Source: Clostridia bacterium (GTDB lineage: Bacteria; Bacillota; Clostridia; Christensenellales; Borkfalkiaceae). From it: a DNA stretch of 64,000 bases. Shown in pieces: positions 1 to 48,455 of the stretch; the first letter of the stretch is position 1; each line of letters opens with the position of its first letter. A model generated the notes under the pieces. The model was given only the letters and a program-made list of their open reading frames with translations. It ran no database searches and was not told the DNA's origin. The translations under genes and the position numbers were made by a program. Location: contig JAFTHW010000007.1 of the NCBI GenBank assembly GCA_017457225.1, forward strand, positions 3,876-67,875, read 5' to 3'.

Positions 1-782
1 AAAAGTACACGGTGGAATTGGGCTTGGATGGCAGTAAGTACGACGAAATCCTTTCCAAATTCGACGACATCGCTTTGGACGACAAGATGATCGTCCGTTT
101 GGACAAGACGCAGAACTTACCCGAAACGCATCGTCATTTCTCGCATTTGATGTGCCTGTATCCTTTACACGTAATCAACTTCGACACGGAAGAGAATCAG
201 CTCATTTATTTGCGCTCCCTTTGGGAGTTGGAAGGACACGGTATGGGGCTTTGGGTAGGCTTCTCGTACGGAATGTGCGCGCAGATCTACGCGATGGCGC
301 TCAAAGGCAATTCGGCGTATGAAAAACTTCGCCAATTCGCAAACGGGTTCGTTGCGGAGAACGGCTTCCACCTCAACGGCGACTTTAAGGACTACGGCTA
401 TTCGACGTTCCATTACCGTCCGTTTACGCTGGAGAGCTCGTTCGGTTATTGCGACGCGTTGCACGAAATGCTGTTGCAGGACCATCAGGGCTATATTCAC
501 CTCTTCCCGGCGATCCCGACGGATTGGAAGGACCGAGAAGTTTCGTTCAAGAAGATCCGCAGTATGGGCGGCGTACTCGTCAGCGCGAAGTCTAAGAACA
601 ACTTGCTCGCGCAAGCGGAATTCGAGTCCTTAAAGCCCACGACCGTACGCGTAAAGAACGTCTTTGCAGATAGAGTCGTTTACGTAGAAAAGAACGGCAA
701 AGCAGAAGCGATCACGGCGGACGAAGAAGATATGTTCACAGTGGAACTCATTCGCGGTAAAACCAAGCTTTACGTAAAATAA
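1..782 (+). CDS. C-terminal part of a GH95-like glycoside hydrolase (alpha-L-fucosidase family); 5' end lies outside the window
   Basis: The frame is open from the window edge. Motifs HRHFSHLMCLYPLH, PFTLESSFGYCDALHEMLLQ and IHLFPAIPTDW resemble the GH95 catalytic/C-terminal region. Confidence 0.55.
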   Translation, partial: KYTVELGLDGSKYDEILSKFDDIALDDKMIVRLDKTQNLPETHRHFSHLMCLYPLHVINFDTEENQLIYLRSLWELEGHGMGLWVGFSYGMCAQIYAMALKGNSAYEKLRQFANGFVAENGFHLNGDFKDYGYSTFHYRPFTLESSFGYCDALHEMLLQDHQGYIHLFPAIPTDWKDREVSFKKIRSMGGVLVSAKSKNNLLAQAEFESLKPTTVRVKNVFADRVVYVEKNGKAEAITADEEDMFTVELIRGKTKLYVK

Positions 783-800
783 ATTCATAGCAGGTACGAG

Positions 801-1427
801 ATGAAACTGATTACTTTAGGGGATTCTATCACGCGCGGCTCGTTTTTCGAGCACGACGAATGGGGAGTAGCCGATCCCAATTATTCTCAGGTTTTGAAAG
901 AGCTTTTGGGCGCAGACGAACTCGTTTGCAGCGGAGTGAACGGAACGGCGATCAGCATTCTTTCTCCGACGAATACCGAATACGTATTTACTGTGCGGGC
1001 GAAAGAATTGAAAGATGCGGACGTATTCGTGATCGCGGGCGGTACGAACGATTTCGGGAACAACGACGGCGTACCTTTGGGAACTCCCGAGGACACCGAA
1101 GATATATCGTTTTACGGCGCGCTGGATTTTTTGTATCGAATCGTAAAAGAGAACAATCCCAAGGCGGAGATCTACGCGGTAACGCCGATCCCTCGCCAAT
1201 GGGAGAGCGAGAACCCCAGCGGTCATACGTTGAACGACTACCGCCGCGCGATCGAAGTAAAAGCTCGGGAATACGGATTTTCCGTGATTGACGGAAGTAA
1301 GGTCGGCATCGATGCGACCACGGCAGAGGGAAGAGCGAAACATCTCCCCGACGGGTTGCATCCCAACGTAGCGGGACACAAACTTTACGGCAATTATCTA
1401 TATCAAGAAATTATAAAAACCAGATAA
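801..1427 (+). CDS. SGNH/GDSL-family hydrolase (esterase)
   Basis: Block I LGDSITRG, block III GGTNDF and block V DGLHPN are present, in an operon-like position between two glycosidase genes. Confidence 0.8.
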   Translation: MKLITLGDSITRGSFFEHDEWGVADPNYSQVLKELLGADELVCSGVNGTAISILSPTNTEYVFTVRAKELKDADVFVIAGGTNDFGNNDGVPLGTPEDTEDISFYGALDFLYRIVKENNPKAEIYAVTPIPRQWESENPSGHTLNDYRRAIEVKAREYGFSVIDGSKVGIDATTAEGRAKHLPDGLHPNVAGHKLYGNYLYQEIIKTR

Positions 1428-1448
1428 AGATAAAGGAGAACGGGTTTT

Positions 1449-3626
1449 ATGAGTAGAAAGGGTAGAGTGACGATTCCTACGGATGAAAATTACGTAGAAG
1501 GTACGAAGAAGATTGCAGAGCTTTGGGGCGCGGACGCGGTGCGTGATTGCGACGGTACCCACCTACCCAAGAACGCTTTGGAAATTGCGGAAAAAGTATA
1601 TAACACGTATTTTGTCGTGCGCGGCGATAACGCGTGGGCAGACAATCACACGGACGAATTGCAGTCGGTGCTTCTCATTACCGATCCCGTACTCGCTACA
1701 AAAGACGGCGAACTCGTCATCGAGCTTTTGAAAGGATACAGCAAAGACCAACTCTGTATGAATGAAGAAAACCCCAAGAAATATTGGCAAGTATTCGATA
1801 GAACGACGTGCGAAGAAGTTCTTACGTGGGACTATTTGGGCGACGGAAAAGTAAAAGTAACGGGCGTTCAGGCGTATCATCAATACACCGTGAACTTCTT
1901 TGCGAAGAACTGCTGGGATTCCACGCAGATGTATAACTATATCACCAATAATTGGAACATTGAAAAGCACAAGGTTATGGAGCCCAGATTCGAGGCTACG
2001 TTCGAGCACATCAAAGACAATATGCGCAAATGGTGTGAAAACAACAAGAACGTAAACGTATGCCGCTACACGACGTTCTTATACCATTTCTTCCTTGTAT
2101 TCGACGAAAGAAACGAACAAAAGCACGTGGATTGGTTCGGTTATCCTATGACGGCGAGCCCCAGAGCGTTCGACGCGTTTGAAAAGGAATACGGCTATGA
2201 GATCAAATCGGAAGACATCGTAGCGAACGGCACGTATCACAGCCATTATACGAACCCTACGAAGAAGTTCCTCGACTATATGGAATTCACGGAAAAATAC
2301 GTCACCAAGACGGTTAGAGAACTCGTAGACATCGTGCACGCAGAAGGCAAAGAAGCGATGATGTTCCTTGGCGACAGCTGGATCGGAACGGAGCCTTACG
2401 GCGATTATTTCAAGGATATGAATTTGGACGCGGTAGTCGGCTCGGTCGGCGGCGGCGTAACCGTTCGTATGCTTTCGGAAATTCCCCACGTAAAATACCA
2501 CGAGGGTAGATTCCTGCCCTACTTCTTCCCCGACACGTTTTTTGAGGGGAATGAAGGTCCTGCGATTGCGGAGCTCAATAGAAATTGGGTAACGGCAAGA
2601 AGAGCGATGCTCAGAAAACCTTTGGACAGAATGGGCTTCGGCGGCTATTTGCAGCTTGCGGCGGAATTTCCCGGCTTTATTCAAAGAGCGGCGGAAATCT
2701 GCGACGAATTCCGTGATATTTGCGATGCGGCAGGGGATGCGAAACCCTATTGCGGCGCAACGGTCGCGGTTTTGAACAGCTGGGGTAAGAAACGCAGCTG
2801 GATGGGACATATGGTCGCGCACGAACTTTGGTATCAAATGGCATACTCCTATCAAGGGGTATACGAAGCGTTGTCTGGTTTGGGTGTAGACGTGAAGTTC
2901 ATTTCTTTCGACGACATTTTGAAGAACGGAATCGAGAAAGACATCGACGTAATTATCAACGTAGGCGACGAGGGCACGGCGTTCTCCGGCGGAGAATATT
3001 GGAACAATCCCGAGCTTGTGACGATGCTTAGAAAATGGGTAGCGGAAGGCCACGGATTGATCGGCGTAGGCGAGCCTACGGCATACCAAAAAGGCGGTAG
3101 ATTATTCCAGCTTGCAGACGTACTCGGCGTAGACGAAGAAAAGGGCTTCACCCTTTCGGAAAATAAATACAATATCGAAAAGAAAGCGCACTTCATCACG
3201 GCGGATACGACGAGCGAAATCGACTACGGCGAAGGCAAGAAGAACGTGTATGCGTTAAAAGGCGCGGAGGTTTTGGATATCGAAATTTCCGACAGATTTA
3301 TCCGTAATGTAAACGTCGGCGAAGTGAAGCTTGCGGCGAACCAATACGGCAAGGGCAGAGGCGTATATATTGCAGGTCTTCCCTACAATCCTCAAAACTC
3401 CAGAATGTTGCTCCGCGCGATTTTCTGGTCGTGCAATAAGGAAAAGGAAATGCAAAAAGCGTTCTCGACCAACGCCGTTACCGATTGCGCGTATTATCCC
3501 GCCACGGGCAAGTACGCTATTATCAACAATACTGATCAAGAACAAAAAACGGTATTCTACGATGTGAATGGCAAAGCGGAAGAAATGACACTGAAACCCA
3601 ATTCCGTTGCTTGGAGAAACGCGTAA
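1449..3626 (+). CDS. gnpA: 1,3-beta-galactosyl-N-acetylhexosamine phosphorylase (GH112; galacto-N-biose/lacto-N-biose phosphorylase)
   Basis: The protein is 725 aa. N-terminus GRVTIPTDENYVEGTKKIAELWGADAVRDCDGTHL, GKEAMMFLGDSWIGTEPY, EGRFLPYFFPDTFFEGN and YGKGRGVYIAGLPY closely follow the Bifidobacterium LNBP pattern as I recall it. Confidence 0.85.
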   Translation: MSRKGRVTIPTDENYVEGTKKIAELWGADAVRDCDGTHLPKNALEIAEKVYNTYFVVRGDNAWADNHTDELQSVLLITDPVLATKDGELVIELLKGYSKDQLCMNEENPKKYWQVFDRTTCEEVLTWDYLGDGKVKVTGVQAYHQYTVNFFAKNCWDSTQMYNYITNNWNIEKHKVMEPRFEATFEHIKDNMRKWCENNKNVNVCRYTTFLYHFFLVFDERNEQKHVDWFGYPMTASPRAFDAFEKEYGYEIKSEDIVANGTYHSHYTNPTKKFLDYMEFTEKYVTKTVRELVDIVHAEGKEAMMFLGDSWIGTEPYGDYFKDMNLDAVVGSVGGGVTVRMLSEIPHVKYHEGRFLPYFFPDTFFEGNEGPAIAELNRNWVTARRAMLRKPLDRMGFGGYLQLAAEFPGFIQRAAEICDEFRDICDAAGDAKPYCGATVAVLNSWGKKRSWMGHMVAHELWYQMAYSYQGVYEALSGLGVDVKFISFDDILKNGIEKDIDVIINVGDEGTAFSGGEYWNNPELVTMLRKWVAEGHGLIGVGEPTAYQKGGRLFQLADVLGVDEEKGFTLSENKYNIEKKAHFITADTTSEIDYGEGKKNVYALKGAEVLDIEISDRFIRNVNVGEVKLAANQYGKGRGVYIAGLPYNPQNSRMLLRAIFWSCNKEKEMQKAFSTNAVTDCAYYPATGKYAIINNTDQEQKTVFYDVNGKAEEMTLKPNSVAWRNA

Positions 3627-3684: not shown

Positions 3685-3722
3685 AACCGCCGTTCTCCGA
3701 ATAGGGGGACGGCGGTTTGTTA
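3685..3722 (+). terminator. Intrinsic terminator after gnpA
   Basis: Hairpin AACCGCCGT / ACGGCGGTT is followed by TGTT. Confidence 0.65.
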
Positions 3723-3812: not shown

Positions 3813-3842
3813 TTGATTACAGGTTGGTATATTTGTGATAAT
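3813..3842 (+). promoter_or_regulatory. Candidate sigma-A promoter for the small ORF plus giant gene
   Basis: TTGATT, an 18-nt spacer, then TGtGATAAT (extended -10) in an AT-rich spacer. Confidence 0.45.
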
Positions 3843-3966: not shown

Positions 3967-4107
3967 ATGAAAACATTGTATGAGCGGCTTTTGGTTTCAG
4001 TGACCTACTATGAAGAAGAAGATGTAATTAGAACATCGTTCACGACGTCCGACGGTGAGAACGCGGGTGGCGTATTGGATTCCGAGTATGACGCTTGGGG
4101 CGACTAA
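3967..4107 (+). CDS. 46-aa acidic small protein of unknown function (MKTLYERLLVSVTYYEEEDVIRTSFTTSDGENAGGVLDSEYDAWGD)
   Basis: A strong RBS (AAGGAG) sits 7 nt upstream of the ATG. The ORF lies 65 nt upstream of the giant gene on the same strand, with no terminator between. It is too short for the ORF track. Confidence 0.45.
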   Translation: MKTLYERLLVSVTYYEEEDVIRTSFTTSDGENAGGVLDSEYDAWGD

Positions 4108-4172
4108 CGAAGTAAAAAAGAAGAATAGGGAAGAACAACGAATAACAAGGAATAATGAGGAGAACAAATATT

Positions 4173-7100
4173 ATGAGTAAAGCAATTAAAAAACCTTTGC
4201 TGTACTTATTGACGGTGTTGAGCGCGATCGTATTTGCGCTCGGTGTATGGTTCGGTTTGGATACCAACCAAAGCTCCGTCACGGCGAACGCAGCGTCGTA
4301 CACCCGTATTACGGGTACGGCATCGAGCGAGAGTGTAAACGGAAAATTGACGTTAAACTCGTTCCGTACGCAAACGGGCGGATCGGTTCGTCTTGTTGCG
4401 CCTAAGGGGCTCCGTTACGTAACGGAAATTTCCCCTGCGGACGTAGCGAAACTGCCTGAGAACGCAGTATTCGGCACGTTGCTGATGCCCAAGGACAAAT
4501 TGGGCGACAACGAACTGGTGAAAGGACTGGTTGTCAACGGTGCGAAGGCGATGGATATCAAGGCAATGTCGTGGAAAGACACGACGATCGCGACGAGTTC
4601 GGATAAATATACATATACGGCGGTATTGGTAGGGAGCGCGACGGCAGACTTGCCCGTTTCCTATTACAACCGTGACATCGTAGCGCGCGGTTACGTTACG
4701 TACACGGACGCTGCAGGTAAAACGTACACGGTCTACGCGAGCAATTCGCAAACGCGTAATATAGCGTACGTAGCGAATCAAACTTTGATCAACGAAGGTT
4801 TGACGGACGAAGCGGAAACGCTGATGAACACGATCATCAAAACGGCGGTTACGTCGTTTGCAGTCAACGAAGACAAAGTAACGCTCGGTGTGAGCAAAAA
4901 TACGACGTACACGATCACGACGACGAGAACGGGCTTGAACGGTAGATCCGTAGACGGGCTGATTCCCACGTACGTTATCGCGAACACGGACGTAGCGACG
5001 ATCGACCAAAACGGTACGATCACGGCGAAGAGTGCGGGTGTTACGACGCTCACGGCAACGCTCGGCAACTTCACGGATACGGTAGAGATCGTTGTTCAAG
5101 ACACGCTTTGGAACAACGTAGACGAAATCACGCGTATCAATTTTACGGATTATTATATGGGTGCGAACGGAAAGACCGGTGACGGTATTTCTAACATTAG
5201 CGTAGCGAATCTTTCGGAAGCGAACGCAGTCGGCGGCAGAACGGGCGGCAGCTACTATTTCGTAGAGCAGGCGTACCGTGACAATGCAAGTGCGGAGAGC
5301 TGGAGAAAAGCAACGCAGCGTTTCGTATTGAAGCCTTATTACGATAAGACCGTATACGAGGCGTACGCAAACGCGAACCAAAACGCGAGCCTTTCGTTCG
5401 ACGTATACTTAACGGAAGCGTTGGCAGATGGCGAAACGCCGTTGAAAGAAAACTACAGCTATTATTTGAACGGCCAGACTTCGCCTCTGAAAATGAGCAC
5501 GAACAAATGGTACACGTTCCAAATCCCTCTTTCGACGTTGTTGACGAATTGGGATGCAATTAAAACGCCCGGTGAAACGAACGACTCGACGATCGCGTTG
5601 TTCAGCGTAGCGGGCGAATTCAGCTCGGCTACGAGAGAACTCAATTTCTGGATCGGTAACTTCACGTTATCGGCAACGACGGACACGAGCACGGGTCCCG
5701 TAATCGAAACGGTAGAAACGAGCGCAATGCAGCTTAAAGACTTGGCAGGGATGGAAACGTTTGACCTGAGCAGTCTTTTGACCGACGCACAAAAAGAATC
5801 TTTGGAAGCAATCAAAGGCGACTACGAAGTAAGCTATTCGGTATCGTACGCAGGCCAAAACGCAGAGGTCAACGGTAGTGTAATGACGACGGCAGGGGTA
5901 GACGCATTGTCGACAGTAGAGATCTACGTCGGCACGTCGATGTTCTACTCCGCGCAAATGGATTTCTACACCTCGTTCGCCCGTAGCTGGAATGTAATCA
6001 GCGCGAGAATGAACGGCGTTGACTATATGTGTAACGGTCAGATCAAAAATGATTATGGCACCATCGAATATTTGGAAAACTACGCAGGAGTAAATGACGT
6101 ATATAAACTGACTACGACTACGGAGTACGCGCAGTTTAACGGTATCAGTATTATGCCTATGCACGGCGAGTCCTATTATCAAGAAATTTATGATCTGGAT
6201 TCGTCGGCAAAACTCACGTTCCAAATTTATTGGGAAGATTTGAAAGGCGCTGAGTATCTTACGCCTATGAGTACGATTTCTTACGACAGACAGTCCAAAG
6301 GAAACAGAACTGAAAATACGTGGCACACGTACGAGATTCCTCTTTCCACGATTTTGGCAAACTGGGAACTTTTAGGTGTCTCGAATGGGGGTAGCGATGC
6401 GCGAAATACTATTTTCGGTGTTACGAATAGTGTTACGGATAACTACTCGTTCTATTTCGCAAATATGACGCTTGAAACGACGGCAATTCCTGCGCCTGAA
6501 TTAACAGCGATTGAAAAGACGATGCAGCCGGTCGACGTAATCGGTTTGGAAGAATACGGCTACGATTTGAATCGTGTGTTGGAAGATACCGAAAAAGAAG
6601 CTCTCGCGACGGCGAAAACGTACCAAGAGGTATATAACTATCCCGTAACCTATAAACTGTTGCAAAACGGTACGGAAGTCTACTCGGGTGAATCCGTAAT
6701 CAATACGACGGCGTTCAAAGGCGTGTATACGTTGGAAATCTACGTAAGTACTGCATTGTTCTACACCGCTCCCATTTATATTTATGATTCCTCCACCGAG
6801 CCTTACATATGGAACGTAATCAGCGCGGAAAAGAACGGCGCGGCGTTTACCTCTAACGGTACGGTTAACGCCTGGTATGGATCGGTAACGTATCATAATA
6901 CGTATGCAAACAAAGAAAACGTTTACGCGATCACGACAACAGCTAATCCAGACGCGTTCAACGGTATTTCGATCAAGGCAATGTATGAGAAATCCTATTA
7001 CGAAGACATTTTGGCGGATGATGAAAACGCGAAAGTAACGTTCTATCTGTATTGGGAAGATTTGATGGGCGTAAACCAAATTACGGTCAACAAAGAAGTT

Positions 7101-10100
7101 GCGTATCATAGAGATAGTGTAAAAGATAATACTCCAAACGTATGGCATAAGTTTGAAGTATCGCTTTCGGTATTGCTTACGAACTGGGATAAACAAGGCG
7201 TAGGCGACGACGGTAACGGAGCGTCTGCGGCATTGGTAGGCTTTAATTCCAGTGGAACGGTAACGGGAAATTACGTTATTTATATGGCGGATTTGGCGAT
7301 CGAAACAACGGCAGCGCCCGATGCGATCGCTCCTTCCGTGGAAGAATTGAGTGGTGAAACGACGCTTGTCAACACCGACGAAACGCCGAGCTTGGATTTG
7401 AGCACGAAGATTTCTCCAGAAAATTTGACGAAACTCGAAAATTACTCCACGTTCAATGGCGTAAAGGGTTACTTTGACGTAACGTATGCGCTTGCAAAAG
7501 ACGGCGTAGCGGTTACGGTGAACGGTACGACGGTAGATTGCGACGGCTTGGTAGGCGTATACACGTTGACGGTATCCGTAGGCGGCGTAACGGCTTACGA
7601 AGCGACGTTGGACTTCTACAACGCAGAAAATGCGCCGATCACGCAGATTCCCACGATCACGACGATCAACGGCACGGTGGCAGAGCCTGTAGACGTAATC
7701 GGTTTGAATGGATACGGCTACGAATTGACGAGAATTTTGACGGCAGAACAGGTAACGGACTTGGAGAACGCAACCTCGTACAACGGCGTACCTTACAGCT
7801 ACCCCGTATCTTATAAGGTATACGCGGGCGAGGTAGAAGCGACCGTAACGGACGGCTTCGTAGCAACAGAAACGCTGAGAGGCGAATACACAGTAGAGAT
7901 CTATGTCGGTACGCAGTTGTTCTATACGGCAACCGTAACGTTTATAGACTCCTCCGATTCTTACGTATACAATACGGCAACGGACGTAAGCACGGTGAGC
8001 AAAACAGGCTGGGGTGGCAACATCACGGTAACGGCAGTGACGGCGGCAGAGCTTCCCATTGCATACACGGGCGAAGCAACGAACTTCCTGAAGATTAAGA
8101 ATTTGAACGGTAACAAGATCGCGATTGCGCCTGAAATGGACGCGGCTTATTACGAAGAGTTGAAAGGCAAAAACTATCTCGTAGCATTTGATTATTTGCT
8201 TTACACGAATGGTTGTGAAAATCCCGCAATCGTATTCCAGGGTGTGAGTGGTCAATATCAAACGAAGGGCGACGCGTGGGTAACGCGCGGTGACGGCAGC
8301 CAAATTGGTTTTGACTCGAATACGGAAGGCGCAAACAACACGTTGTATCTTGACAACTTGTTGGACGGCACGACGACGTATGTAATGTACACGTATGATA
8401 CACCCGACGGCTATGCAAATTGGGAACTGTACGTAGGTAATTTCCGCATTCTCAACACAGACGGAAGCGACCTCCCCGTAGGCAAAGTAGAGCCTGAAAT
8501 TGAGTCGGCCATTGAAAATGCAGAAACAACGAAGATCGACCTGATCGGTTTGGCTAACTACTCCTACGACCTGTCTACGCTTTTGCCGAATGAGTACGAG
8601 GATGATCTCGCTACGGCAAGATCGTTCAACGGCAGAGAAGAAGTCTTCGACGTAACGTATGCGTTGAAGCAGGGTGAAAACGAAGTAGAACTTAGCGGCT
8701 CTTTCGTTCCTTGCGCTTCCGTAAGCGGTGACTACACGTTAGAAATCTACGTAGGCGGCGTATTGTTCTACACCGCTCCCGTAAACTTCTACGATTCCTC
8801 TGTGCGCGTATGGAATACGATTAACGCAGATAAGACCGGCGCGGCGTTTACCTCTAACGGTACGGTGAACGCTTGGTATGGATCGGTAACGTATCTTGAA
8901 ACGTATGCAAACAAAGAAAATGTTTACGCGATCACGATGACAGAAAACGCAAATCAGTTCAACGGTATTTCGATCAAGGCAATGTATGAGAAATCCTATT
9001 ACGAGGCTATTTTGGCGGCTGATCCTAACGCGAAAGTAACGTTCTATTTGTATTGGGAAGATTTGAAGGGCGTAGACCAAATTACGGTCAACAGTGAAAT
9101 TCATTATAATAGAGAAACTTTAAAGGATAAGACTCCGAATGTATGGCAAAAGTTTGAAGTATCGCTTTCGGTATTGCTTACGAATTGGGATTACCAAGGC
9201 GTAGCAAGCGTAAGCTGGGGCGGAGCAGATGCGGCATTGGTAGGCTTTAACTCCAGTACGTCAACGGTAACGGGAAATTACGTTATTTATATGGCGGATT
9301 TGGCGATCGAAACGACGGCGGTCGACACGGTAGAGCCTACGATTACGCAAGTTTTGAGAGGTGAAACGACGCTTGTCAACACCGACGAAACGCCGAACTT
9401 GGATTTGAGTGAAACCATCTTGGAAGCAAACAAAACAGCGCTCGAAAGCTATCGTGCGTTCAACGGCGTAGCGACGTACTTCGATGTAACGTACGCGCTT
9501 GCAAAAGGCGAAGAAACGGTTATGGTAAACGGCTCTTCCGTTGCTTGTGACGGTTTGGTAGGCGTATACGATTTGACGGCATTTGTAGGCGGCGAAATCG
9601 CTTACACGGCAACGATTGACTTCTATAACAGCGAAGTAGCTCCCGAAACGGCAACGCCTACGTTCGACGCGAGAACGGCGGAAACGACGAAAGTAAATGT
9701 TCTCGGCTTGTCCGCGTACGAATACGATTTCTTGAGCGTTTTGACGGCAGACGACAAAGTTGCGTTGAGCTCGGCAAGAGAATTTAACGGCGAAGCGAAC
9801 GTCTTCCCTGTAACCTATCAAGTATTGCAAGGCGAAACGGTAGTGTCGAGTGGCACGAAAGTTTCGTTCGCAGAGCTTGCAGGCGACTACACGTTTGAAA
9901 TTTATGTAGGCGGCGTATTGTTCTACACCGCTCCCGTAAACTTCTACGATTCCTCCGATCCGTTCGTATGGAACGTAATCAGCGCGGAAAAGAACGGCGT
10001 TGACTATATGTGTAACGGTGCTGTTAAAAATTCTTGGGGTTCCATTGAATATTTGGAAACATACGCGAATGCAAGCGACGTTTATAAAGTAACGACGACG

Positions 10101-13100
10101 AATAATTACGAGTATTTTAACGGTATTTCAATCAAGGCAATGCACGACAAATCCTATTACCAAGAAATTTTGGATAAGGACGCATCGGCAAAACTCACGT
10201 TCCAGGTATATTGGGAAGATGTAAAAGGAGCTCAGTATCTTACGGAGAACAAATCGAGTGCTTATCAGAGAGAATATATTCCAGAAGAAGCATCTACGTG
10301 GCATACGTATGAGATACCTCTTTCGCGGTTGCTCGACAACTGGGATTATATGGGTGGCACTAACGGTGACTCGCGTTCGATCTTGGTTGCGATAGGCGAG
10401 GGCGCAACGGAGAACTTCTCATTCTATTTTGCGAATATGGCGCTTGAAACGACGGCAACGCCTGACACGGTAGATCCTACCGTAGAATTGGTGACGGGCG
10501 CGGCGCAATCCGTCAATATGGCAGGCAATACGACGTTTGACTTGACGTCCACGATTTCGGGCGTAAATCAAGTAAAACTCGAGGCAATGAACGTATTCGA
10601 TAAGAATGCGTATATGACGGTAGAAAACTACTTTGAGGTAACCTACACGCTCACGCAGGGTGAAACGGTTTACGATCTTGGCACGAGTGCTTCGATCGAT
10701 TCTTCCGCATACCTTGGCGACTATACGTTCAACGTATATATCGGCGGCGTAGAAGCGTACGAATCCACGCTTACCCTCTACAACACCGACAACGGTTACG
10801 AATGGAACGTAATCAGCTCGGCAAAAGACGGCGTTGACTATATGTGTAACGGTGTGATTAGCAATGCTTCTGGTACGATCGAATATTTGGAAAGCTATGC
10901 AGAAGTAAATGATGTATACAAACTGACGACGACGACAGATTACAACCAGTTTAACGGTATCGGTATTACGCCTATGCACGACAAGTCCTATTACCAAGAA
11001 CTTGCGGAAATGGATGCGTCGGCAAAACTTACGTTCCAAATTTATTGGGAAGATTTGAAAGGCGCTACATACCTTACGCCTATGCAGACGGGCTCTTGGG
11101 GAAGACAGTCCAAAGGAAACAGAACTGAAAATACGTGGCACACGTACGAGATTTCTCTTTCTACGATTCTGGCAAACTGGGATAAGTTAGGTGTTTCGCA
11201 GCCGGGTAGCGGTGGTGCTCAAAATACTATTTTCGGTATCGATAATGGCGCAACGGAGAACTTCTCATTCTATTTTGCGAATATGGAATTGGTAGTAGAC
11301 GTTCCCGAATATTTCTACGAAGCAACAGAAGAAGAAACCGAAAACGTTGTATGGAACTCCGTAAACCCTGAACGTATCACCGATTATACGGCATATTACG
11401 TTAACCAGCCTGTATCTTGGAGAGGCGGCACGAGCTTTATCTCCGTTGACAAACTCAGCGAAGAAAATGCGTTGGGTGGCAGAACGGAAGGCGCGTACTA
11501 TCTCGTTACGATGGATACAAGCAATGCGGATTGCTATCACTACTTTGCATTAAAGCCTTTGTTTGACAAAGCAACCTATCAAAACAATTACGATCTCTCC
11601 ACGGCAACGTTGACGTTCGACTTCTGTTTTAAGAACGTAGCGGCAACGCCTACGTCCACGCCTACCTTGAGAAAAGTTAATCCTCTCGGCGGCGCGGCGA
11701 TAAACGCGCAGGCGGACACGTGGTACACGTTTGAAGTTTCGTTGGCGAAATTGCTTGAAAATTGGGATGAATTCCAAACACCCAATACGAACGATGAGTC
11801 AGATCTGTGCTCGATCTTCAAGTTGGAAAGCACGTTCGGCTCTGACGAAAATAAGGATTCCGATCCCGTGAATATGTGGTTTGGTAACTTCGAGTTGTCG
11901 GGTAAGAAAGACGCAGACAACACGGTTGGCAAAGCGGAGAACAACACGGATGCGACCATTTGGACGGCAACCGGCGAGAAGATCTTGCAGAATAAGACGT
12001 ACGAAGTTGGCGCGGAAGCGCTCGAAATCAACGCATTCCGCAACGAGTACGAATCCGCGCAGATCATTATGACGGCTACGTCCGAAATGACGTACACGAT
12101 TGAACTTGCAGACTTGACGGATAGATGGGGCAACGTCCTTTCGGCGGATTGCTTCGATATCTACCATCAGTTGTATATTGAAGTATCGCGTTCGACCGAT
12201 CCTTTCAATTCGCAGGGCGCAGGCTTCTATCCCGACGCATTGTTGCCTTACAGCGCGGCGGTGCTCAAGGGCATCAACACGACGGCAAACGGCAACCAGG
12301 GTATTTGGGTAACGGTTAACGTACCGAAAGATCAGGAAGCAGGCGTTTACACGGGCGCATTCACGCTCACGATCGACGGTAAGACGGCGACAGTTCCCGT
12401 ATGCGTAACGGTTTACGATTACACGCTCTCTGACGAAGTCCACAGCACGAACACGTTCAGCTTCAACTGGGCAGCGGTTGCGGCGGCGGAAGGCTTGTTC
12501 GCAGACGGCGTAACGGATTACAGCGAAGTAAGCGGCTCTAACGTACCTTACGAATTGCAGCAGATGTATCGTGACTTCTTGTCTGAGTACCGTATCAGTA
12601 CTCCTGCATTGGCGGGTTACACGGGCAGCGATTATACGAGTTGGGCGGGCTACGCGTATAGACCGAATGAAATCTTCAACTATACGAAAGAGAACGACGA
12701 ATTCACATCTACGTTCAAGCTGTTGAACAAAGATGAAACGGGCTATAGCAATATGACCGATTATGAGTTCAACGACAACGTTGAAAAGTGGTTGGTATCC
12801 GTAACGGAACAGCTTAAGAAAGATCCTGCATACAGAATCAACATTATTTCGCAGTCCACGCGTGTAAGAAGTGCGGTCATTGAAAGCACGGTTGCGGCGT
12901 TGAATAAGGACGCGGCTACGGAAGCTACGGCTTTGGCTGGCATTGATACGATTCACAATGTTCGAGATGGCTCTCAAGGTGGCGACGTGATCGACGAACT
13001 CGTATTGAGACACGTTATTGAAGAAATGTATCTTTACAGCGTAGAGAACAATATCAACTTGTTCGATCGTTCGTATATGTTCTTCAGCGGTATCGACGAA

Positions 13101-14759
13101 TTCGAATCTAAGGGCACGTTGGTCGGCGACGTAACTTGGACGGAATACGCTCTGTACGTTGTAAGCAGAATGAACGCGTTCTTCAACGCAGAAGAGGGCG
13201 AGGACGGTAATATGTCCGCTTGGTTGCGTGCGAAGTATGGCGTAGCGGAAGGAACGTTTGCAGATGAAATTTTGGCTTCCATCACGGCGTTCAAGATGTC
13301 GATCACGAGCAGTAAGATTTCGACGGCAGAACTCTTTGATTCGGTAGGCGTAGACGCAATCTTCGTTCCTACTTTGGATCAATATCACGACGCGGAAGAA
13401 TATGCGAAGTGGCAGGCGTACGCGGAAGCGCATAGCGGCAAGGTAATGTGGACGTACACGGCAATCCATCCCGATGCTCCTTACACCTCCTACCATATTG
13501 AAGACAACTTGCTTTCCGCAAGATTGCTCAACTGGATGATGTATGAAAAGGACACGGTAGGCAACTTGTACTGGTCGACGATGCTTTCGAGATATCTCGG
13601 CGGCTTCGACAACGATGGTACGATTATCTCCGGTATGGACTACTACACGGTGGCAGAGAAGTATCTGAACCAGAACGGTGAAGGCTTCTTGATCTATCCC
13701 GGTGAATGCTATTCGGTAACGGGCCCCGTAGGCAGCGTTCGTTTGCAAGCGATCCGCGACGGTGTAGAAGACTACGATTTGTTGTACGCTTTGGAAGAAT
13801 TGTACGTAAATCAAGGGTTGGAAAGCTTCGACGACGTATACGAATACTTGGCTGAAACGGTTTACTTCGGTACGAAAGTGAAGTACGGCTCCAACAGCTA
13901 CTATCTTGACGGCGACGCGACGTATCTTGACAACTTCGTATCGATGCGTGGAAACTTAGCAACCTTGCTTGAAATGGCAAGCGACGCGAACGTTCAAGCG
14001 TATCTGTCCGAAGCAAGCTTCGATAAGGAAAACAAGACGGTTACGTTCTCCATCAAGGCGGCTGACGGTATCTCCGTACTGGTCAACGGTGAGAAACTTA
14101 CGGCGGTAGACGGCGTATACACCAAGACCTTGTCTTTGACGAGCGTTGACTCCGTAAGCATTTTGGTCGGCGGCACGTACGAGCTCAACTTCTCGCTTGC
14201 GCATAAAGCAGAAGAAGCAAACGCAACGATTGAAGGGTTAACGAACGACTTCTTGGCAGGCGTTACGGTTACGGCTCACTACGGCACCACTGAAGATGGT
14301 ATTAGCGCAGGTTCGGCAGAATCGGCGGCTTCGGCTCCTACGGGCGCAGTAGCTGACGCGACGTATTATAGTATGAGTCTGGAAAAAGATTCAACTTACA
14401 ACGGCTTCACGTTCACCTTGACGGAAGAACTTAAAACGCTTTTGGAAAACTATTCCGACGACGCAGTTCTTCAGTACGACTTCTACATTGAAGAAGCAGG
14501 CGTTGATAACAGAGGCGTTTCCGGTTACTGGTTGGGTGCTCCGAGAACAGGTTATACCACGAACACTTGGATTACGTTGGAGGTTTCTATGAGAAGCGTC
14601 TTGAGTGCGAGCGGCACAGTGGTTGCTGGATCTGATGAGAATGGTGATCCTAGAGCCATGAGCGATATTTACAACAACGCATTGGCGACGCTGGGCTATG
14701 AGTATGTTCAAACCGATATGAACTTGTATATCGGTAACTTCAGAGTTGTTCAAGCATAA
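4173..14759 (+). CDS. Giant (~3530 aa) membrane-anchored modular glycoside-hydrolase candidate with a DUF4091/GH123-like catalytic region and many repeated beta-sandwich modules
   Basis: The ORF is uninterrupted for 10.6 kb. RBS GAGGAG precedes ATG 4173 (the track start at 4155 is an alternative). There is a signal-anchor KKPLLYLLTVLSAIVFALGVWFGL and a Big_2-like module (IDQNGTITAKSAGVTTLTATLG). DUF4091-like landmarks at nt ~11950-13810 include FYPDALLPY, GIDEFE and GEGFLIYPG...RLQAIRDGVEDYDLL. Confidence 0.9.
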   Translation: MSKAIKKPLLYLLTVLSAIVFALGVWFGLDTNQSSVTANAASYTRITGTASSESVNGKLTLNSFRTQTGGSVRLVAPKGLRYVTEISPADVAKLPENAVFGTLLMPKDKLGDNELVKGLVVNGAKAMDIKAMSWKDTTIATSSDKYTYTAVLVGSATADLPVSYYNRDIVARGYVTYTDAAGKTYTVYASNSQTRNIAYVANQTLINEGLTDEAETLMNTIIKTAVTSFAVNEDKVTLGVSKNTTYTITTTRTGLNGRSVDGLIPTYVIANTDVATIDQNGTITAKSAGVTTLTATLGNFTDTVEIVVQDTLWNNVDEITRINFTDYYMGANGKTGDGISNISVANLSEANAVGGRTGGSYYFVEQAYRDNASAESWRKATQRFVLKPYYDKTVYEAYANANQNASLSFDVYLTEALADGETPLKENYSYYLNGQTSPLKMSTNKWYTFQIPLSTLLTNWDAIKTPGETNDSTIALFSVAGEFSSATRELNFWIGNFTLSATTDTSTGPVIETVETSAMQLKDLAGMETFDLSSLLTDAQKESLEAIKGDYEVSYSVSYAGQNAEVNGSVMTTAGVDALSTVEIYVGTSMFYSAQMDFYTSFARSWNVISARMNGVDYMCNGQIKNDYGTIEYLENYAGVNDVYKLTTTTEYAQFNGISIMPMHGESYYQEIYDLDSSAKLTFQIYWEDLKGAEYLTPMSTISYDRQSKGNRTENTWHTYEIPLSTILANWELLGVSNGGSDARNTIFGVTNSVTDNYSFYFANMTLETTAIPAPELTAIEKTMQPVDVIGLEEYGYDLNRVLEDTEKEALATAKTYQEVYNYPVTYKLLQNGTEVYSGESVINTTAFKGVYTLEIYVSTALFYTAPIYIYDSSTEPYIWNVISAEKNGAAFTSNGTVNAWYGSVTYHNTYANKENVYAITTTANPDAFNGISIKAMYEKSYYEDILADDENAKVTFYLYWEDLMGVNQITVNKEVAYHRDSVKDNTPNVWHKFEVSLSVLLTNWDKQGVGDDGNGASAALVGFNSSGTVTGNYVIYMADLAIETTAAPDAIAPSVEELSGETTLVNTDETPSLDLSTKISPENLTKLENYSTFNGVKGYFDVTYALAKDGVAVTVNGTTVDCDGLVGVYTLTVSVGGVTAYEATLDFYNAENAPITQIPTITTINGTVAEPVDVIGLNGYGYELTRILTAEQVTDLENATSYNGVPYSYPVSYKVYAGEVEATVTDGFVATETLRGEYTVEIYVGTQLFYTATVTFIDSSDSYVYNTATDVSTVSKTGWGGNITVTAVTAAELPIAYTGEATNFLKIKNLNGNKIAIAPEMDAAYYEELKGKNYLVAFDYLLYTNGCENPAIVFQGVSGQYQTKGDAWVTRGDGSQIGFDSNTEGANNTLYLDNLLDGTTTYVMYTYDTPDGYANWELYVGNFRILNTDGSDLPVGKVEPEIESAIENAETTKIDLIGLANYSYDLSTLLPNEYEDDLATARSFNGREEVFDVTYALKQGENEVELSGSFVPCASVSGDYTLEIYVGGVLFYTAPVNFYDSSVRVWNTINADKTGAAFTSNGTVNAWYGSVTYLETYANKENVYAITMTENANQFNGISIKAMYEKSYYEAILAADPNAKVTFYLYWEDLKGVDQITVNSEIHYNRETLKDKTPNVWQKFEVSLSVLLTNWDYQGVASVSWGGADAALVGFNSSTSTVTGNYVIYMADLAIETTAVDTVEPTITQVLRGETTLVNTDETPNLDLSETILEANKTALESYRAFNGVATYFDVTYALAKGEETVMVNGSSVACDGLVGVYDLTAFVGGEIAYTATIDFYNSEVAPETATPTFDARTAETTKVNVLGLSAYEYDFLSVLTADDKVALSSAREFNGEANVFPVTYQVLQGETVVSSGTKVSFAELAGDYTFEIYVGGVLFYTAPVNFYDSSDPFVWNVISAEKNGVDYMCNGAVKNSWGSIEYLETYANASDVYKVTTTNNYEYFNGISIKAMHDKSYYQEILDKDASAKLTFQVYWEDVKGAQYLTENKSSAYQREYIPEEASTWHTYEIPLSRLLDNWDYMGGTNGDSRSILVAIGEGATENFSFYFANMALETTATPDTVDPTVELVTGAAQSVNMAGNTTFDLTSTISGVNQVKLEAMNVFDKNAYMTVENYFEVTYTLTQGETVYDLGTSASIDSSAYLGDYTFNVYIGGVEAYESTLTLYNTDNGYEWNVISSAKDGVDYMCNGVISNASGTIEYLESYAEVNDVYKLTTTTDYNQFNGIGITPMHDKSYYQELAEMDASAKLTFQIYWEDLKGATYLTPMQTGSWGRQSKGNRTENTWHTYEISLSTILANWDKLGVSQPGSGGAQNTIFGIDNGATENFSFYFANMELVVDVPEYFYEATEEETENVVWNSVNPERITDYTAYYVNQPVSWRGGTSFISVDKLSEENALGGRTEGAYYLVTMDTSNADCYHYFALKPLFDKATYQNNYDLSTATLTFDFCFKNVAATPTSTPTLRKVNPLGGAAINAQADTWYTFEVSLAKLLENWDEFQTPNTNDESDLCSIFKLESTFGSDENKDSDPVNMWFGNFELSGKKDADNTVGKAENNTDATIWTATGEKILQNKTYEVGAEALEINAFRNEYESAQIIMTATSEMTYTIELADLTDRWGNVLSADCFDIYHQLYIEVSRSTDPFNSQGAGFYPDALLPYSAAVLKGINTTANGNQGIWVTVNVPKDQEAGVYTGAFTLTIDGKTATVPVCVTVYDYTLSDEVHSTNTFSFNWAAVAAAEGLFADGVTDYSEVSGSNVPYELQQMYRDFLSEYRISTPALAGYTGSDYTSWAGYAYRPNEIFNYTKENDEFTSTFKLLNKDETGYSNMTDYEFNDNVEKWLVSVTEQLKKDPAYRINIISQSTRVRSAVIESTVAALNKDAATEATALAGIDTIHNVRDGSQGGDVIDELVLRHVIEEMYLYSVENNINLFDRSYMFFSGIDEFESKGTLVGDVTWTEYALYVVSRMNAFFNAEEGEDGNMSAWLRAKYGVAEGTFADEILASITAFKMSITSSKISTAELFDSVGVDAIFVPTLDQYHDAEEYAKWQAYAEAHSGKVMWTYTAIHPDAPYTSYHIEDNLLSARLLNWMMYEKDTVGNLYWSTMLSRYLGGFDNDGTIISGMDYYTVAEKYLNQNGEGFLIYPGECYSVTGPVGSVRLQAIRDGVEDYDLLYALEELYVNQGLESFDDVYEYLAETVYFGTKVKYGSNSYYLDGDATYLDNFVSMRGNLATLLEMASDANVQAYLSEASFDKENKTVTFSIKAADGISVLVNGEKLTAVDGVYTKTLSLTSVDSVSILVGGTYELNFSLAHKAEEANATIEGLTNDFLAGVTVTAHYGTTEDGISAGSAESAASAPTGAVADATYYSMSLEKDSTYNGFTFTLTEELKTLLENYSDDAVLQYDFYIEEAGVDNRGVSGYWLGAPRTGYTTNTWITLEVSMRSVLSASGTVVAGSDENGDPRAMSDIYNNALATLGYEYVQTDMNLYIGNFRVVQA
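5690..11299 (+). repeat. Intragenic array of alternating ~105-115-aa linker modules (8 copies) and ~165-aa beta-sandwich-like modules (5 copies plus 1 divergent)
   Basis: B modules lie at 5988-6485, 6810-7313, 8811-9320, 9969-10457 and 10803-11299, with a divergent one at 7960-8460. Perfect nucleotide identities: 6288-6348 = 11103-11163 (61 nt), 8751-8800 = 9906-9955 (50 nt), 6808-6840 = 9967-9999 (33 nt). Confidence 0.9.
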
Positions 14760-14910: not shown

Positions 14911-14939
14911 TTGACAAAAATTGCAGCCCGTGATATAAT
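14911..14939 (+). promoter_or_regulatory. Sigma-A promoter (TTGACA-17-TGaTATAAT)
   Basis: Consensus -35, a 17-nt spacer and an extended -10 lie about 95 nt upstream of the CapD-like gene. Confidence 0.65.
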
Positions 14940-15031: not shown

Positions 15032-16858
15032 ATGAGAAAACGACATAAAATACTCCTTGTCATCGCTGACGTATGCGCGGTGCTTTTGGCGGTAGCGTTA
15101 GCGCACCTGAGTACGCATACCCCGAAGATTTGGACTTTAAAGACTGCTTTTTGGGCAGGCGGAAACGTTATCTGCACAGTGGGGCTGTTTACGCTGTTTG
15201 GAATGTATTCCATCGTTTTTAAATCGGTCGGTATCGTAGAAAATTTAAAACTGTTATCGGCAACGGCGATACTTGGCGTATTTAACGTCGTGTATTCGGT
15301 TGCAATAGGTCGCGTGGACGTTAGTATCGGTACGGCGTTTATCTTTACCGTACTTTTGGCTGTTATGGCGGTCGGGATTCGGTATATGCTCCGTATTGCA
15401 ATGGTTTTGAAGTACTATTTCTTCGATAAGCGTCCGAATAAAACGCGAGTGATGATTGTAGGCGGCGGTGACGCAGGTACGATGCTGATCAAGGAAATGC
15501 TCAGTTCGGACAAGGTGGCGTACTATCCCGTATGCATCGTGGACGATAGTCTGGAAAAAGTTGGGAAAGCCATCGGTAGCGTCAAAGTCGTAGGCACGAC
15601 CGAGCAGATTCCCGAGCTCGTGGAAAAATACCACGTACAAGAGATTTTTATCGCGATGCCCTCCGTAGCCAAAAGGCGTTTGAGTGAGATTGTAAATGTT
15701 TGTAAAGACGCGATAAAAACCGTCAAAATTTTGCCCGGAGTCTATCAATTCGCAACGGGAGAAGTCACGGTCGCAACCCTTCGCGACGTAGACGTACAGG
15801 ACCTTTTAGGCAGAGAACAGGTCAAGGTCAATTTGGACGAAATTATGGGCTATATTGAGCACGAAACCGTACTTGTCACGGGTGGCGGTGGCTCGATTGG
15901 CAGCGAGTTGTGTCGCCAAGTCGCTTCGCATAACCCTAAAACGTTGATTATTTTCGATATTTACGAAAATAACGCTTACGATATTGAGCAGGAGCTGAAA
16001 CATAACTATCCTAATTTGAAGCTGATTACGTTGATTGGCAGTATCCGCGATGAAAAGAAAATCCGTAACGTATTTGAGAAATACCAACCGAGGATTGTTT
16101 TCCACGCGGCAGCGCACAAGCACGTGCCTTTGATGGAAACGAGTCCCAACGAAGCCGTGAAGAACAACGTTTTCGGAACTTTGAACGTAGCGCGTATGGC
16201 GGACGAATTTAAAGTCAAGACGTTCGTCCAGATCTCTACAGACAAAGCGGTCAACCCTACGAATATTATGGGCGCGACCAAGCGCATTTGCGAGATGATT
16301 ATTCAAACGATCGGTCGCCACAGCAAGCATACGAATTTCGTAGCCGTACGCTTTGGGAACGTACTCGGCTCGAACGGCTCGGTCATTCCGCTGTTCCGCA
16401 AGCAGATCGCGGCGGGCGGACCGGTTACGGTCACGGATAAAGAAATCATTCGTTACTTTATGACCATACCCGAAGCGGTATCGCTCGTATTACAGGCAGG
16501 CGCGTACGCAAAAGGCGGACAAATTTTCGTTCTGGATATGGGCGAACCTGTGAAGATCTACGACTTGGCATATAATCTCATCAAACTCTCGGGGTATAAA
16601 CCCAACGAAGACATCGACATCGTATGCACGGGACTTCGTCCGGGTGAAAAGCTCTACGAAGAACGTCTGATGGAAGAAGAGGGCTTGCAGACCACGGCAA
16701 ACGGCCTGATCAATATCGCCCGTCCCATTCCCTTGGACGAGGACTTGCTTTGGAAAACGCTGGATAAGCTCCACGTAGAAGTCCATAAGGAAACGGAGGA
16801 GATGAAGAGCCTCGTACAAGAACTCGTTCCCACGTATACCATCGACGAAACGCATTAA
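15032..16858 (+). CDS. Membrane-bound polysaccharide biosynthesis protein, CapD/PglF-type UDP-sugar 4,6-dehydratase
   Basis: Four N-terminal TM segments are followed by a Rossmann motif (VLVTGGGGSIGSEL), FHAAAHKHVP and NVLGSNGSVIP. Confidence 0.85.
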   Translation: MRKRHKILLVIADVCAVLLAVALAHLSTHTPKIWTLKTAFWAGGNVICTVGLFTLFGMYSIVFKSVGIVENLKLLSATAILGVFNVVYSVAIGRVDVSIGTAFIFTVLLAVMAVGIRYMLRIAMVLKYYFFDKRPNKTRVMIVGGGDAGTMLIKEMLSSDKVAYYPVCIVDDSLEKVGKAIGSVKVVGTTEQIPELVEKYHVQEIFIAMPSVAKRRLSEIVNVCKDAIKTVKILPGVYQFATGEVTVATLRDVDVQDLLGREQVKVNLDEIMGYIEHETVLVTGGGGSIGSELCRQVASHNPKTLIIFDIYENNAYDIEQELKHNYPNLKLITLIGSIRDEKKIRNVFEKYQPRIVFHAAAHKHVPLMETSPNEAVKNNVFGTLNVARMADEFKVKTFVQISTDKAVNPTNIMGATKRICEMIIQTIGRHSKHTNFVAVRFGNVLGSNGSVIPLFRKQIAAGGPVTVTDKEIIRYFMTIPEAVSLVLQAGAYAKGGQIFVLDMGEPVKIYDLAYNLIKLSGYKPNEDIDIVCTGLRPGEKLYEERLMEEEGLQTTANGLINIARPIPLDEDLLWKTLDKLHVEVHKETEEMKSLVQELVPTYTIDETH

Positions 16859-48274: not shown

Positions 48275-48455
48275 AAAGACTGCGCGGAACACGAATGCTG
48301 CTCCCGTGGCGAAAGATTGACGGAAAGAACGGTTCAGAAAAAAGATAGAAAAACTTCGGAAGCGTAGAAGAAGAGCGTTGCAAAAGTAACGGATATAAAA
48401 ACGTTCGTTATTGACGGGCGTGGAATTAGTTGTCATTAATTAAAGGAGAATGGTT

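Follow-up and report, generated by a model that had tools for sequence, protein, structure and literature searches.

The window analysed in this work is a 64,000-nucleotide stretch of contig JAFTHW010000007.1 from a Clostridia bacterium of the gut that has not been cultured. On its forward strand lies a giant gene encoding a single protein of 3,528 residues, hereafter the giant. It is preceded by a small open reading frame (ORF) and by genes for a family 95 glycoside hydrolase (GH95), a GDSL esterase, and a family 112 (GH112) phosphorylase of galacto-N-biose and lacto-N-biose (GNB/LNB), and it is followed by a CapD-like polysaccharide biosynthesis gene. Residues 2593-3235 of the giant are a divergent catalytic unit of family GH123 with an intact catalytic signature, accompanied by 17 accessory modules of two kinds: nine B modules of about 170 residues and eight A modules of about 100 residues. 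Neither the enzyme family nor its chemistry is new, and public databases already list the sequence under an automatically assigned name (NCBI record MBQ9728311.1, "DUF4091 domain-containing protein [Clostridia bacterium]"). Our literature search found no description of the giant A/B architecture, of the A and B module families, or of the pairing of long GH123-like proteins with GH112 reported below.

The catalytic unit

Two Pfam families matched the catalytic unit above their cut-offs. PF22680, the GH123 N-terminal domain, was found at residues 2612-2733, with an E-value of 3e-9 in the whole protein and 6e-10 in the excised segment. PF13320 (GH123_cat, formerly DUF4091) was found at residues ~3058-3206 (E 5e-10, 39.7 bits versus a cut-off of 23.1), only when the segment was scanned alone and only with the C-terminal third of the profile (positions 198-323 of 324). 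The first-pass annotation, made from the sequence alone, had expected a PF13320/GH123 match at nucleotides ~11950-13810; family membership was borne out by both profiles, with PF13320 covering a smaller part than foreseen. Scanning the whole giant against NCBIfam gave no match. A phmmer search of the PDB sequences returned as its best match NgaCa from Cohnella abietis (8K2F, E 6.5e-24), a strictly oligosaccharide-releasing beta-N-acetylgalactosaminidase of GH123 Group 1 (PDB 8K2F/8K2G), followed by NgaDssm of Group 3 (E 3.4e-19), NgaAt, and BvGH123 (E 1e-4); CpNga123 was not matched in this single-sequence search. With a profile built from 14 sequences, the E-value of the NgaCa match improved to 5.9e-50. 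The beta-sandwich domain of the giant aligned to residues 10-197 of NgaCa. The middle of the barrel, which carries the proposed Asp-Glu (DE) pair, was not aligned in the sequence searches and was therefore tested separately by fold and by alignment.

The AlphaFold2 model of the catalytic unit had a predicted template modelling score (pTM) of 0.72, and the beta-sandwich, with predicted local distance difference test values (pLDDT) of 77-97, as well as most of the barrel strands were well predicted. When this model was compared with the PDB using Foldseek, every one of the top 22 matches belonged to the GH123 superfamily, aligned along some 670 columns at E-values from 3e-26 for NgaCa, the best, to 3e-18; NgaDssm reached 1.6e-25. 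Compared with NgaCa, the barrel of the giant holds about 120 additional residues between strands 1 and 4.

For the active site, we aligned the giant and its homologues by MAFFT with the reference set published by Sumida et al. 2024 (Supplementary Data 3). The pair D2975-E2976, which the first-pass annotation had singled out within GIDEFE, aligned with the catalytic DE of five GH123 enzymes, NgaCa, NgaMg, NgaNp, NgaBa, and NgaLy (D327/E328 in the last), was invariant in 13 homologues, and closely follows one of the barrel strands of the AlphaFold2 model. The other seven residues conserved in the superfamily are all kept as well, namely D2688, W2712, Y3095, G3130, W3134, Y3175, and R3190, making nine of nine with the DE pair; their NgaLy equivalents are D95, W115, Y392, G427, W431, Y466, and R478, the last four of which were mapped through NgaCa. 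These nine residues are conserved across all GH123 groups, and mutation in NgaLy shows that folding or substrate recognition depends on them (PMC11087588). Because GH123 was enlarged in 2024, when CAZy merged Groups 1-4 into it as subfamilies (PMC11087588), the catalytic unit of the giant is a member of GH123.

Within the family, the catalytic unit appears nearest to Groups 1 and 3: NgaCa of Group 1 ranked first by both sequence and modelled fold, with NgaDssm of Group 3 almost as close. The nearest solved relative is thus of the oligosaccharide-releasing Group 1 and not one of the classical exo-acting GH123 enzymes. NgaCa shares the two-domain core and the full set of nine conserved residues, the DE pair among them; however, the two proteins are only 17-18% identical in the structural alignment, and NgaCa, with 513 residues, carries no accessory modules. 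The classical exo-acting enzymes (NgaP, CpNga123 5FQE, BvGH123 5L7R, and Uhgb_GH123) have the same fold and DE pair as the giant, and several are of gut origin and act on glycolipid glycans, but their sequence likeness to the giant is much weaker and they are several-fold smaller. The pocket of the classical exo-acting enzymes blocks the -2 subsite (PMC11087588).

Gene and modular architecture

The giant gene is a single ORF without any stop from either possible ATG codon (4155 or 4173) to 14759 on the forward strand, corresponding to 3,534 or 3,528 codons. The NCBI annotation starts at ATG 4173, and a GAGGAG sequence at 4159-4164, resembling a ribosome-binding site, lies 8 nucleotides before this codon, in accordance with the uninterrupted 10.6-kb frame and good ribosome-binding site noted in the first-pass annotation. 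From stop-codon frequency, we estimated the chance of about 3,500 stop-free codons at about 48% G+C to be ~e^-170, and the G+C content is uniform over the gene and its flanks. The gene is intact in two assemblies: the protein is 100% identical on a 69.8-kb metagenome contig in ENA and on a 68.7-kb contig of a metagenome-assembled genome (MAG) in NCBI, and the ENA contig (ERZ27256821 k141_1176790) matches the window exactly over 24,759 nucleotides.

At the N-terminus, an A-x-A site, VTANA↓AS (around residue 41/42), comes after the hydrophobic stretch, and a homologue from locus L003 has the same N-terminal layout with AASA↓E. The N-terminus may be either a cleaved signal peptide or a membrane anchor. 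The hydrophobic stretch of the signal-anchor proposed earlier is present, but membrane anchoring is only one possibility, as the good A-x-A site that follows may be cleaved. The motif search found no LPxTG in the giant, and the Pfam scan gave no match to surface-layer homology (SLH), choline-binding, or dockerin domains; anchoring by any of these was rejected, as had already been noted for the first three.

Module boundaries were defined by self-comparison in chunks of 120 residues, by alignments, and with hidden Markov models (HMMs). The signal region is followed by an N-terminal domain, one Big_2 immunoglobulin (Ig)-like domain, the A/B array at residues 310-2580, the catalytic unit, a short linker domain, and the ninth B module (Table 1). 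Along the array the modules are ordered B-A-B-A-B-A-A-B(divergent)-A-B-A-A-B-A-B-B. About 80% of the residues of the giant are non-catalytic, with the A modules making up about a quarter of the protein. The single Big_2-like module and one divergent repeat were noted in the first-pass annotation, which found the B array but missed the eight A modules and counted eight modules with the strict B motif, where we count seven; a looser C-terminal copy and a divergent one (residues 1268-1430) bring the number of B modules to nine. The very large multi-module architecture was also described as new. The large array is real but not unique, for sister giants exist and the sequence is already in nr.

Table 1. 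Features of the giant gene and its upstream flank. Positions refer to the window, residues to the 3,528-residue protein.
Feature	Position	Strand	Residues	Basis or remark
Upstream gene set	12-3626	+		Pfam; GH95 C-terminal part 12-782, GDSL esterase 801-1427, GNB/LNB phosphorylase GH112 1449-3626
Promoter-like site	3813-3842	+		TTGATT, 18-nucleotide spacer, TG-GATAAT; consensus scan, count not above shuffles
Small ORF	3967-4107	+		46 residues (MKTLYERLLVSVTYYEEEDVIRTS...); directly upstream of the giant gene; called as a gene in L001
Giant gene	4173-14759	+	1-3528	3,528 residues plus stop; alternative ATG 4155 gives 3,534 residues
Sec signal peptide or signal anchor (predicted)	4173-4298	+	1-42	KK, 21-residue hydrophobic stretch, then VTANA↓AS; read from sequence
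N-terminal domain, unassigned family	4299-4844	+	43-224	
Big_2 Ig-like domain	4845-5093	+	225-307	PF02368, E 1.7e-5, 25.1 bits versus cut-off 22.8
B module 1, long subtype	5100-5687	+	310-505	HMM E 1e-58; strict motif at residue 446
A module 1	5688-5987	+	506-605	
B module 2 (modelled)	5988-6488	+	606-772	strict motif, alignment, HMM
A module 2	6489-6809	+	773-879	
B module 3	6810-7316	+	880-1048	strict motif, alignment, HMM
A module 3	7317-7652	+	1049-1160	
A module 4	7653-7973	+	1161-1267	
B module 4, divergent	7974-8462	+	1268-1430	no NWD motif; HMM E 2.7e-28
A module 5	8463-8804	+	1431-1544	
B module 5	8805-9323	+	1545-1717	strict motif, alignment, HMM
A module 6	9324-9647	+	1718-1825	
A module 7	9648-9965	+	1826-1931	
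B module 6	9966-10460	+	1932-2096	strict motif, alignment, HMM
A module 8	10461-10799	+	2097-2209	
B module 7	10800-11306	+	2210-2378	strict motif, alignment, HMM
B module 8, long subtype	11325-11912	+	2385-2580	strict motif, alignment, HMM
GH123 N-terminal beta-sandwich domain	11949-12452	+	2593-2760	holds D2688, W2712
(beta/alpha)8-barrel catalytic domain	12453-13877	+	2761-3235	holds Y3095, G3130, W3134, Y3175, R3190
Catalytic Asp-Glu pair (in GIDEFE)	13095-13100	+	2975-2976	alignment and model
Short beta-rich linker domain (predicted)	13980-14192	+	~3270-3340	
B module 9, C-terminal	14205-14756	+	3345-3528	HMM E 1e-42; looser motif

The B modules matched no family in the Pfam scan of the whole protein up to an E-value of 1. 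When the nine were scanned singly, PF18329 (SGBP_B_XBD), the xyloglucan-binding domain of SGBP-B, matched three of them weakly, with a best E-value of 1.4e-4 that is below the cut-off (14.7 bits for the first module versus 26.4). A B-module profile searched against the PDB gave 7k44 (SGBP-B) as its best match at a non-significant E-value of 0.013. The AlphaFold2 model of B module 2 is an 11-strand beta-sandwich (pLDDT 71.6, pTM 0.74), for which Foldseek placed SGBP-B (5E7G) and the carbohydrate-binding modules (CBMs) CBM30, CBM4-2, and CBM11 on top, at E-values of 2.4e-3 or higher and TM-scores of 0.36-0.45. The xyloglucan-binding domain of SGBP-B (Bacova_02650, 5E7G/7K44) and the type-B modules CBM30, CBM4, and CBM11 are beta-jelly-rolls similar in size to the B module; they are the only recurring matches, and all remain below family thresholds. 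The earlier expectation that the repeated modules have no strong match to known CBM families was thereby confirmed. From sequence and model, the B modules appear CBM-like in fold and fall into no described family.

The A modules, with the consensus ...VTY.L..G.....G..V....L.G.YTLEIYVGG.LFYTA...FYDSS, gave no match. The N-terminal domain likewise gave no sequence match in Pfam or the PDB; it is kept at 33-37% identity in proteins P0041 and P0046 and in a 2,009-residue protein of locus L003. The linker domain is probably Ig-like, and its position is conserved in homologues of 820-985 residues.

Relatives and gene neighbourhood

The numbers of relatives given here are lower bounds, as the giant itself was missing from the match lists of both libraries searched. 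In the genome collection, the catalytic unit matches 571 stretches or more, almost all of which lie in MAGs of uncultured gut Clostridia, named for instance Christensenellaceae, Borkfalkia, Gallimonas, or Scatosoma; the samples are of deer, sheep, chicken, horse, and human origin. The best-matching segments are 26-48% identical, and the usual form is a protein of about 830 residues, which, unlike the giant, has no N-terminal array. "DUF4091" proteins of 820-985 residues from gut Clostridia MAGs (P0001-P0040 and P0066), together with the sister giants described next, share 30-38% identity with the catalytic unit of the giant. Three sister giants, P0043 (4,255 residues), P0050 (4,337 residues), and P0051 (3,518 residues), repeat this layout of an A/B array, the catalytic unit, and a B module at the C-terminus, and P0046, P0054, P0083, and P0066 have intermediate architectures. 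What P0066 has in common with the giants is the catalytic domain with its linker and the B module at the C-terminus; the A/B array and the small ORF in front of the gene are shared among the giants. The unit from residue ~2600 to 3527, comprising the catalytic domains, the linker, and B module 9, is about 30% identical over about 1,000 residues in P0043, P0050, P0051, P0066, and P0083, and conservation among the relatives is highest in the catalytic unit together with the C-terminal B module. We do not count the C-terminal module of the ~830-residue homologues as a B module, for which hhalign gave a probability of 4.5%. This module (alignment positions 687-832) weakly matches the eukaryotic ciliary protein FAP20/CFAP20, a beta-jelly-roll, at E-values of ~6e-4 to 9e-4.

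The B modules also occur apart from GH123. Searching a word-indexed protein library with the B-module profile returned nothing, reflecting a limit of its sensitivity, as index-free HMMER then identified 111 representative proteins (P0041-P0151) at E-values of 1e-3 or lower among 1.84 billion, which makes the family a rare one. In none of the 47 scanned B-module proteins lacking the GH123 unit was a catalytic domain recognisable; 45 of them have no Pfam domain at E-values up to 1e-5, and the remaining two carry just Big_2 or Flg_new. Lipoprotein-like signal sequences stand at the start of many B-module proteins, and at locus L016 (8369-15529) B-module genes adjoin ABC-transporter genes and a gene for a GH123-like protein of about 830 residues. 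Another B-module protein locus is found at L015 (5796-13460). The family appears to be restricted to proteins that uncultured gut Clostridia export, and its members have the look of "dark" surface proteins with which these bacteria bind glycans.

Upstream of the window start, at 2-3280 of locus L001, we observed a paralogue of at least 1,092 residues with four B modules, cut by the contig end. Its B modules, which reach 72% identity with those of the giant, include a copy of the divergent B module 4 at 50% identity, and long, highly acidic SSEVVDSSEE repeats take the place of A modules as linkers. It gave no Pfam match and has no visible catalytic domain.

The small ORF directly upstream of the giant gene belongs to a family of 42-55 residues that precedes genes for large exported proteins, whether GH123-like or with B or A modules, and sometimes overlaps them; the members in front of the other long GH123-like or B-module genes have 42-48 residues. 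Copies were found in L081 (6750-6887), L082 (9864-10001), L003 (4102-4230), L016 (13348-13494), L046 (12935-13081), L007 (13352-13495), L014 (16759-16899), L054 (92-259), and others. The consensus reads MKK.YE.P.h.hh.F...DVh.[TS]S, followed by an acidic and aromatic tail. Six copies were used to build an HMM, which retrieved about ten more, and 16 of the 17 matches at E-values below 0.01 directly precede an ORF of 317-4,341 residues on the same strand. No Pfam family matched the small ORF. Its product may be a leader peptide with a regulatory function, or else a small partner subunit.

The gene set upstream of the giant ends with the phosphorylase, which is matched by PF09508, PF17385, and PF17386 (E 1.8e-182) and named 1,3-beta-galactosyl-N-acetylhexosamine phosphorylase by NCBI; the GH95 gene, truncated by the window start, is full length in L001. 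On the downstream side, the CapD-like gene (15032-16858) is preceded at 14911-14939 on the forward strand by a promoter sequence matching the sigma-70 consensus at 12 of 12 positions (TTGACA, 17-nucleotide spacer, TATAAT, with an upstream TG), and a scan for terminators downstream of the giant gene found none. Some 34 kb away from the giant, at 48450-49457 on the forward strand, lies a gene of the sialic-acid-specific acetylesterase (SASA) family (E 2.6e-27), which fits a lifestyle of foraging on host sialoglycans.

GH112 recurs beside the long GH123-like genes. Among the loci retrieved, it lies within 10 kb in three of the six with GH123-like genes for more than 1,500 residues (the window, L003, and L054) and in none of about 75 loci holding only the short forms of about 830 residues. 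The hypergeometric estimate for this pairing is ~2e-4, to be read with the caution that not all loci are independent and some flanks are short. The phosphorylases of L003 and L054 are 85% and 47% identical to that of the window, respectively. At both loci (L003 2426-13409 and L054 634-13002), a long GH123-like gene is followed by a GH36 gene and then by the GNB/LNB phosphorylase gene. GH36 is a family of alpha-galactosidases and alpha-N-acetylgalactosaminidases. L003 additionally has a GH20-type hexosaminidase gene upstream, and L054 a gene for a 739-residue B-module protein. At L081 and L082, a giant gene for 4,255-4,337 residues stands in tandem with another GH123-like gene directly after it (L081 20058-25898, L082 22889-28735), encoding about 1,947 residues, with genes for a MalK-like ATPase of an ATP-binding cassette (ABC) transporter and for a GH1 enzyme upstream and without GH112.

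Proposed function and alternative explanations

We consider it likely that the giant is an exported, multi-modular, retaining GH123-family glycosidase that forages on host-type glycans containing beta-linked N-acetylgalactosamine (GalNAc). Its catalytic unit would cleave beta-linked N-acetylhexosamine (HexNAc), probably beta-GalNAc, by substrate-assisted catalysis, in which D2975 might orient and stabilise the substrate's 2-acetamido group and E2976 might serve as the general acid/base. This mechanism is the most likely one, given the conserved residues and the established chemistry of GH123. The nine B modules might provide multivalent glycan binding and the eight A modules, as spacers, a long reach from the cell. 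A role in host-glycan foraging is most likely because the genes for GH95, the GDSL esterase, and the GNB/LNB phosphorylase adjoin the giant gene and a SASA-family gene is present in the genome. Possible targets would include the glycans of ganglio- and globo-series glycolipids and the Sda and LacdiNAc epitopes; GH123 enzymes of the gut break down GA2- and Gb4-type glycolipid glycans (PMC7531118). It is the gene context that suggests a host glycoconjugate as the target, and a weak resemblance in fold that suggests carbohydrate binding by the B modules.

The product of the reaction is a separate question. NgaCa acts only on Gal-beta1,3-GalNAc-beta-pNP, the para-nitrophenyl glycoside of the disaccharide of galactose (Gal) and GalNAc (PMC11087588). 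By analogy, the giant might release Gal-beta1,3-GalNAc, or Gal-beta1,3-N-acetylglucosamine (Gal-beta1,3-GlcNAc), and thereby feed the neighbouring phosphorylase, a proposal that we make only tentatively; an exo-acting mode releasing monosaccharides is about equally likely. In the GNB/LNB pathway of bifidobacteria, the lacto-N-biosidases LnbB and LnbX and the endo-alpha-N-acetylgalactosaminidase EngBF release disaccharides for a GH112 phosphorylase. Those enzymes belong to other families (GH20, GH136, and GH101), and the pathway has a dedicated ABC transporter. The logic proposed to be common to both systems is that a large extracellular enzyme frees Gal-beta1,3-HexNAc, which GH112 then splits; for the giant, it is drawn from the gene neighbourhood. 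If true, the giants would open a new extracellular entry into the GNB/LNB phosphorylase pathway of gut Clostridia.

Several observations weigh against the proposed function or parts of it. NgaCa leaves the GA1 and Gb5 oligosaccharides uncut, and its natural substrate is not known (PMC11087588). The nearest homologues of the giant share just 30-38% identity with it. The first half of the barrel was aligned by sequence neither to PF13320 nor to the solved enzymes, and the insertions of about 120 residues were modelled weakly, with three of them at pLDDT below 50, including segment residues 254-305 and 346-376. Because these insertions are poorly modelled, the model does not tell an oligosaccharide-releasing cleft from an exo-acting pocket, and for the subsite tryptophans that mark the NgaCa type alongside a minimal, open-cleft barrel (W197, W218, and W249) no alignable counterpart was found in the giant. 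Every likeness of the B modules to carbohydrate-binding folds is below significance. As for the genes, a strong terminator-like hairpin at 3685-3717 after the phosphorylase gene, followed by the promoter-like site of Table 1, suggests that the giant gene is a transcription unit of its own, separate from the phosphorylase. Neither a dedicated GNB/LNB ABC transporter nor a downstream catabolic gene was found among the approximately 30 of about 50 larger ORFs of the window that were scanned, and the giants at L081 and L082 have no phosphorylase gene nearby.

The strongest competing explanation keeps the enzyme class but assigns it a non-host target, such as microbial polymers of beta-GalNAc or HexNAc (capsule, exopolysaccharide, teichoic-acid-like polymers, and perhaps the envelope of the bacterium itself) or glycans from the diet, with the phosphorylase being coincidental or serving another galactoside. 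The inactivity of NgaCa on GA1 and Gb5 agrees with such a target, and the oligosaccharide-releasing enzymes of Group 1 have been proposed to act on long repeating exopolysaccharides, some of them having capsule or O-antigen genes as neighbours (Sumida et al., PMC11087588). The CapD-like gene lies directly downstream of the giant, the giants at L081 and L082 have no host-glycan genes nearby, and many relatives come from the guts of herbivores. However, the CapD-like gene is probably a separate unit with its perfect sigma-70-type promoter match, GH95, the GNB/LNB phosphorylase, and the SASA esterase occur in the same genome region as the giant, and GH36, GH20, and phosphorylase genes recur beside the long forms in L003 and L054. 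We regard a non-host target as unlikely.

The giant might also be mainly a surface adhesin or glycan-capture protein, in which the 17 accessory modules do the work and the GH123-like unit is catalytically weak or lectin-like. The large non-catalytic share of the protein is in line with this idea, and the L001 paralogue and all 47 scanned B-module proteins without GH123 have no recognisable catalytic domain, so B arrays can work without an enzyme. Yet the giant has retained the DE pair and the seven other conserved residues, which are required for folding or substrate recognition in NgaLy, and the relatives conserve no part better than the catalytic unit plus the C-terminal B module, making an adhesin very improbable.

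A foraging glycosidase would bear on questions beyond this locus. The natural substrates of the oligosaccharide-releasing branch of GH123 are still unknown (PMC11087588), and the locus offers gene-context clues to them, with a Group 1/3-like unit beside a Gal-beta1,3-HexNAc phosphorylase and with GH36 and GH20 in related loci. If the B modules bind glycans, they would represent a new CBM family and a handle on the "dark" surface proteins of animal and human gut microbiomes, and the giant enzyme could serve as a tool for the analysis of glycolipid and mucin glycans. A more far-reaching combination, in which the B modules are a new CBM family for beta-GalNAc or Gal-beta1,3-HexNAc, the giants act as endo-type "galacto-N-biosidases" removing Gal-beta1,3-GalNAc/GlcNAc from host glycolipids or mucins, and the ORF of about 45 residues is their dedicated partner, is speculative and, taken as a whole, rather improbable.

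The least credible explanation is an assembly artefact, in which genes or strains were joined or repeats mis-stacked: although the contig stems from a short-read metagenome assembly and the gene contains 17 repeated modules, repeat collapse is unlikely because the DNA repeats inside the gene are at most 86% identical (differing by at least 14%) over 300 nucleotides, with the longest near-identical run being 74 nucleotides at 95%, and it was rejected on this divergence and on the same 3,528-residue product being found on the ENA and NCBI MAG contigs, while independent giants of 3,518-4,337 residues from other samples keep the module order.

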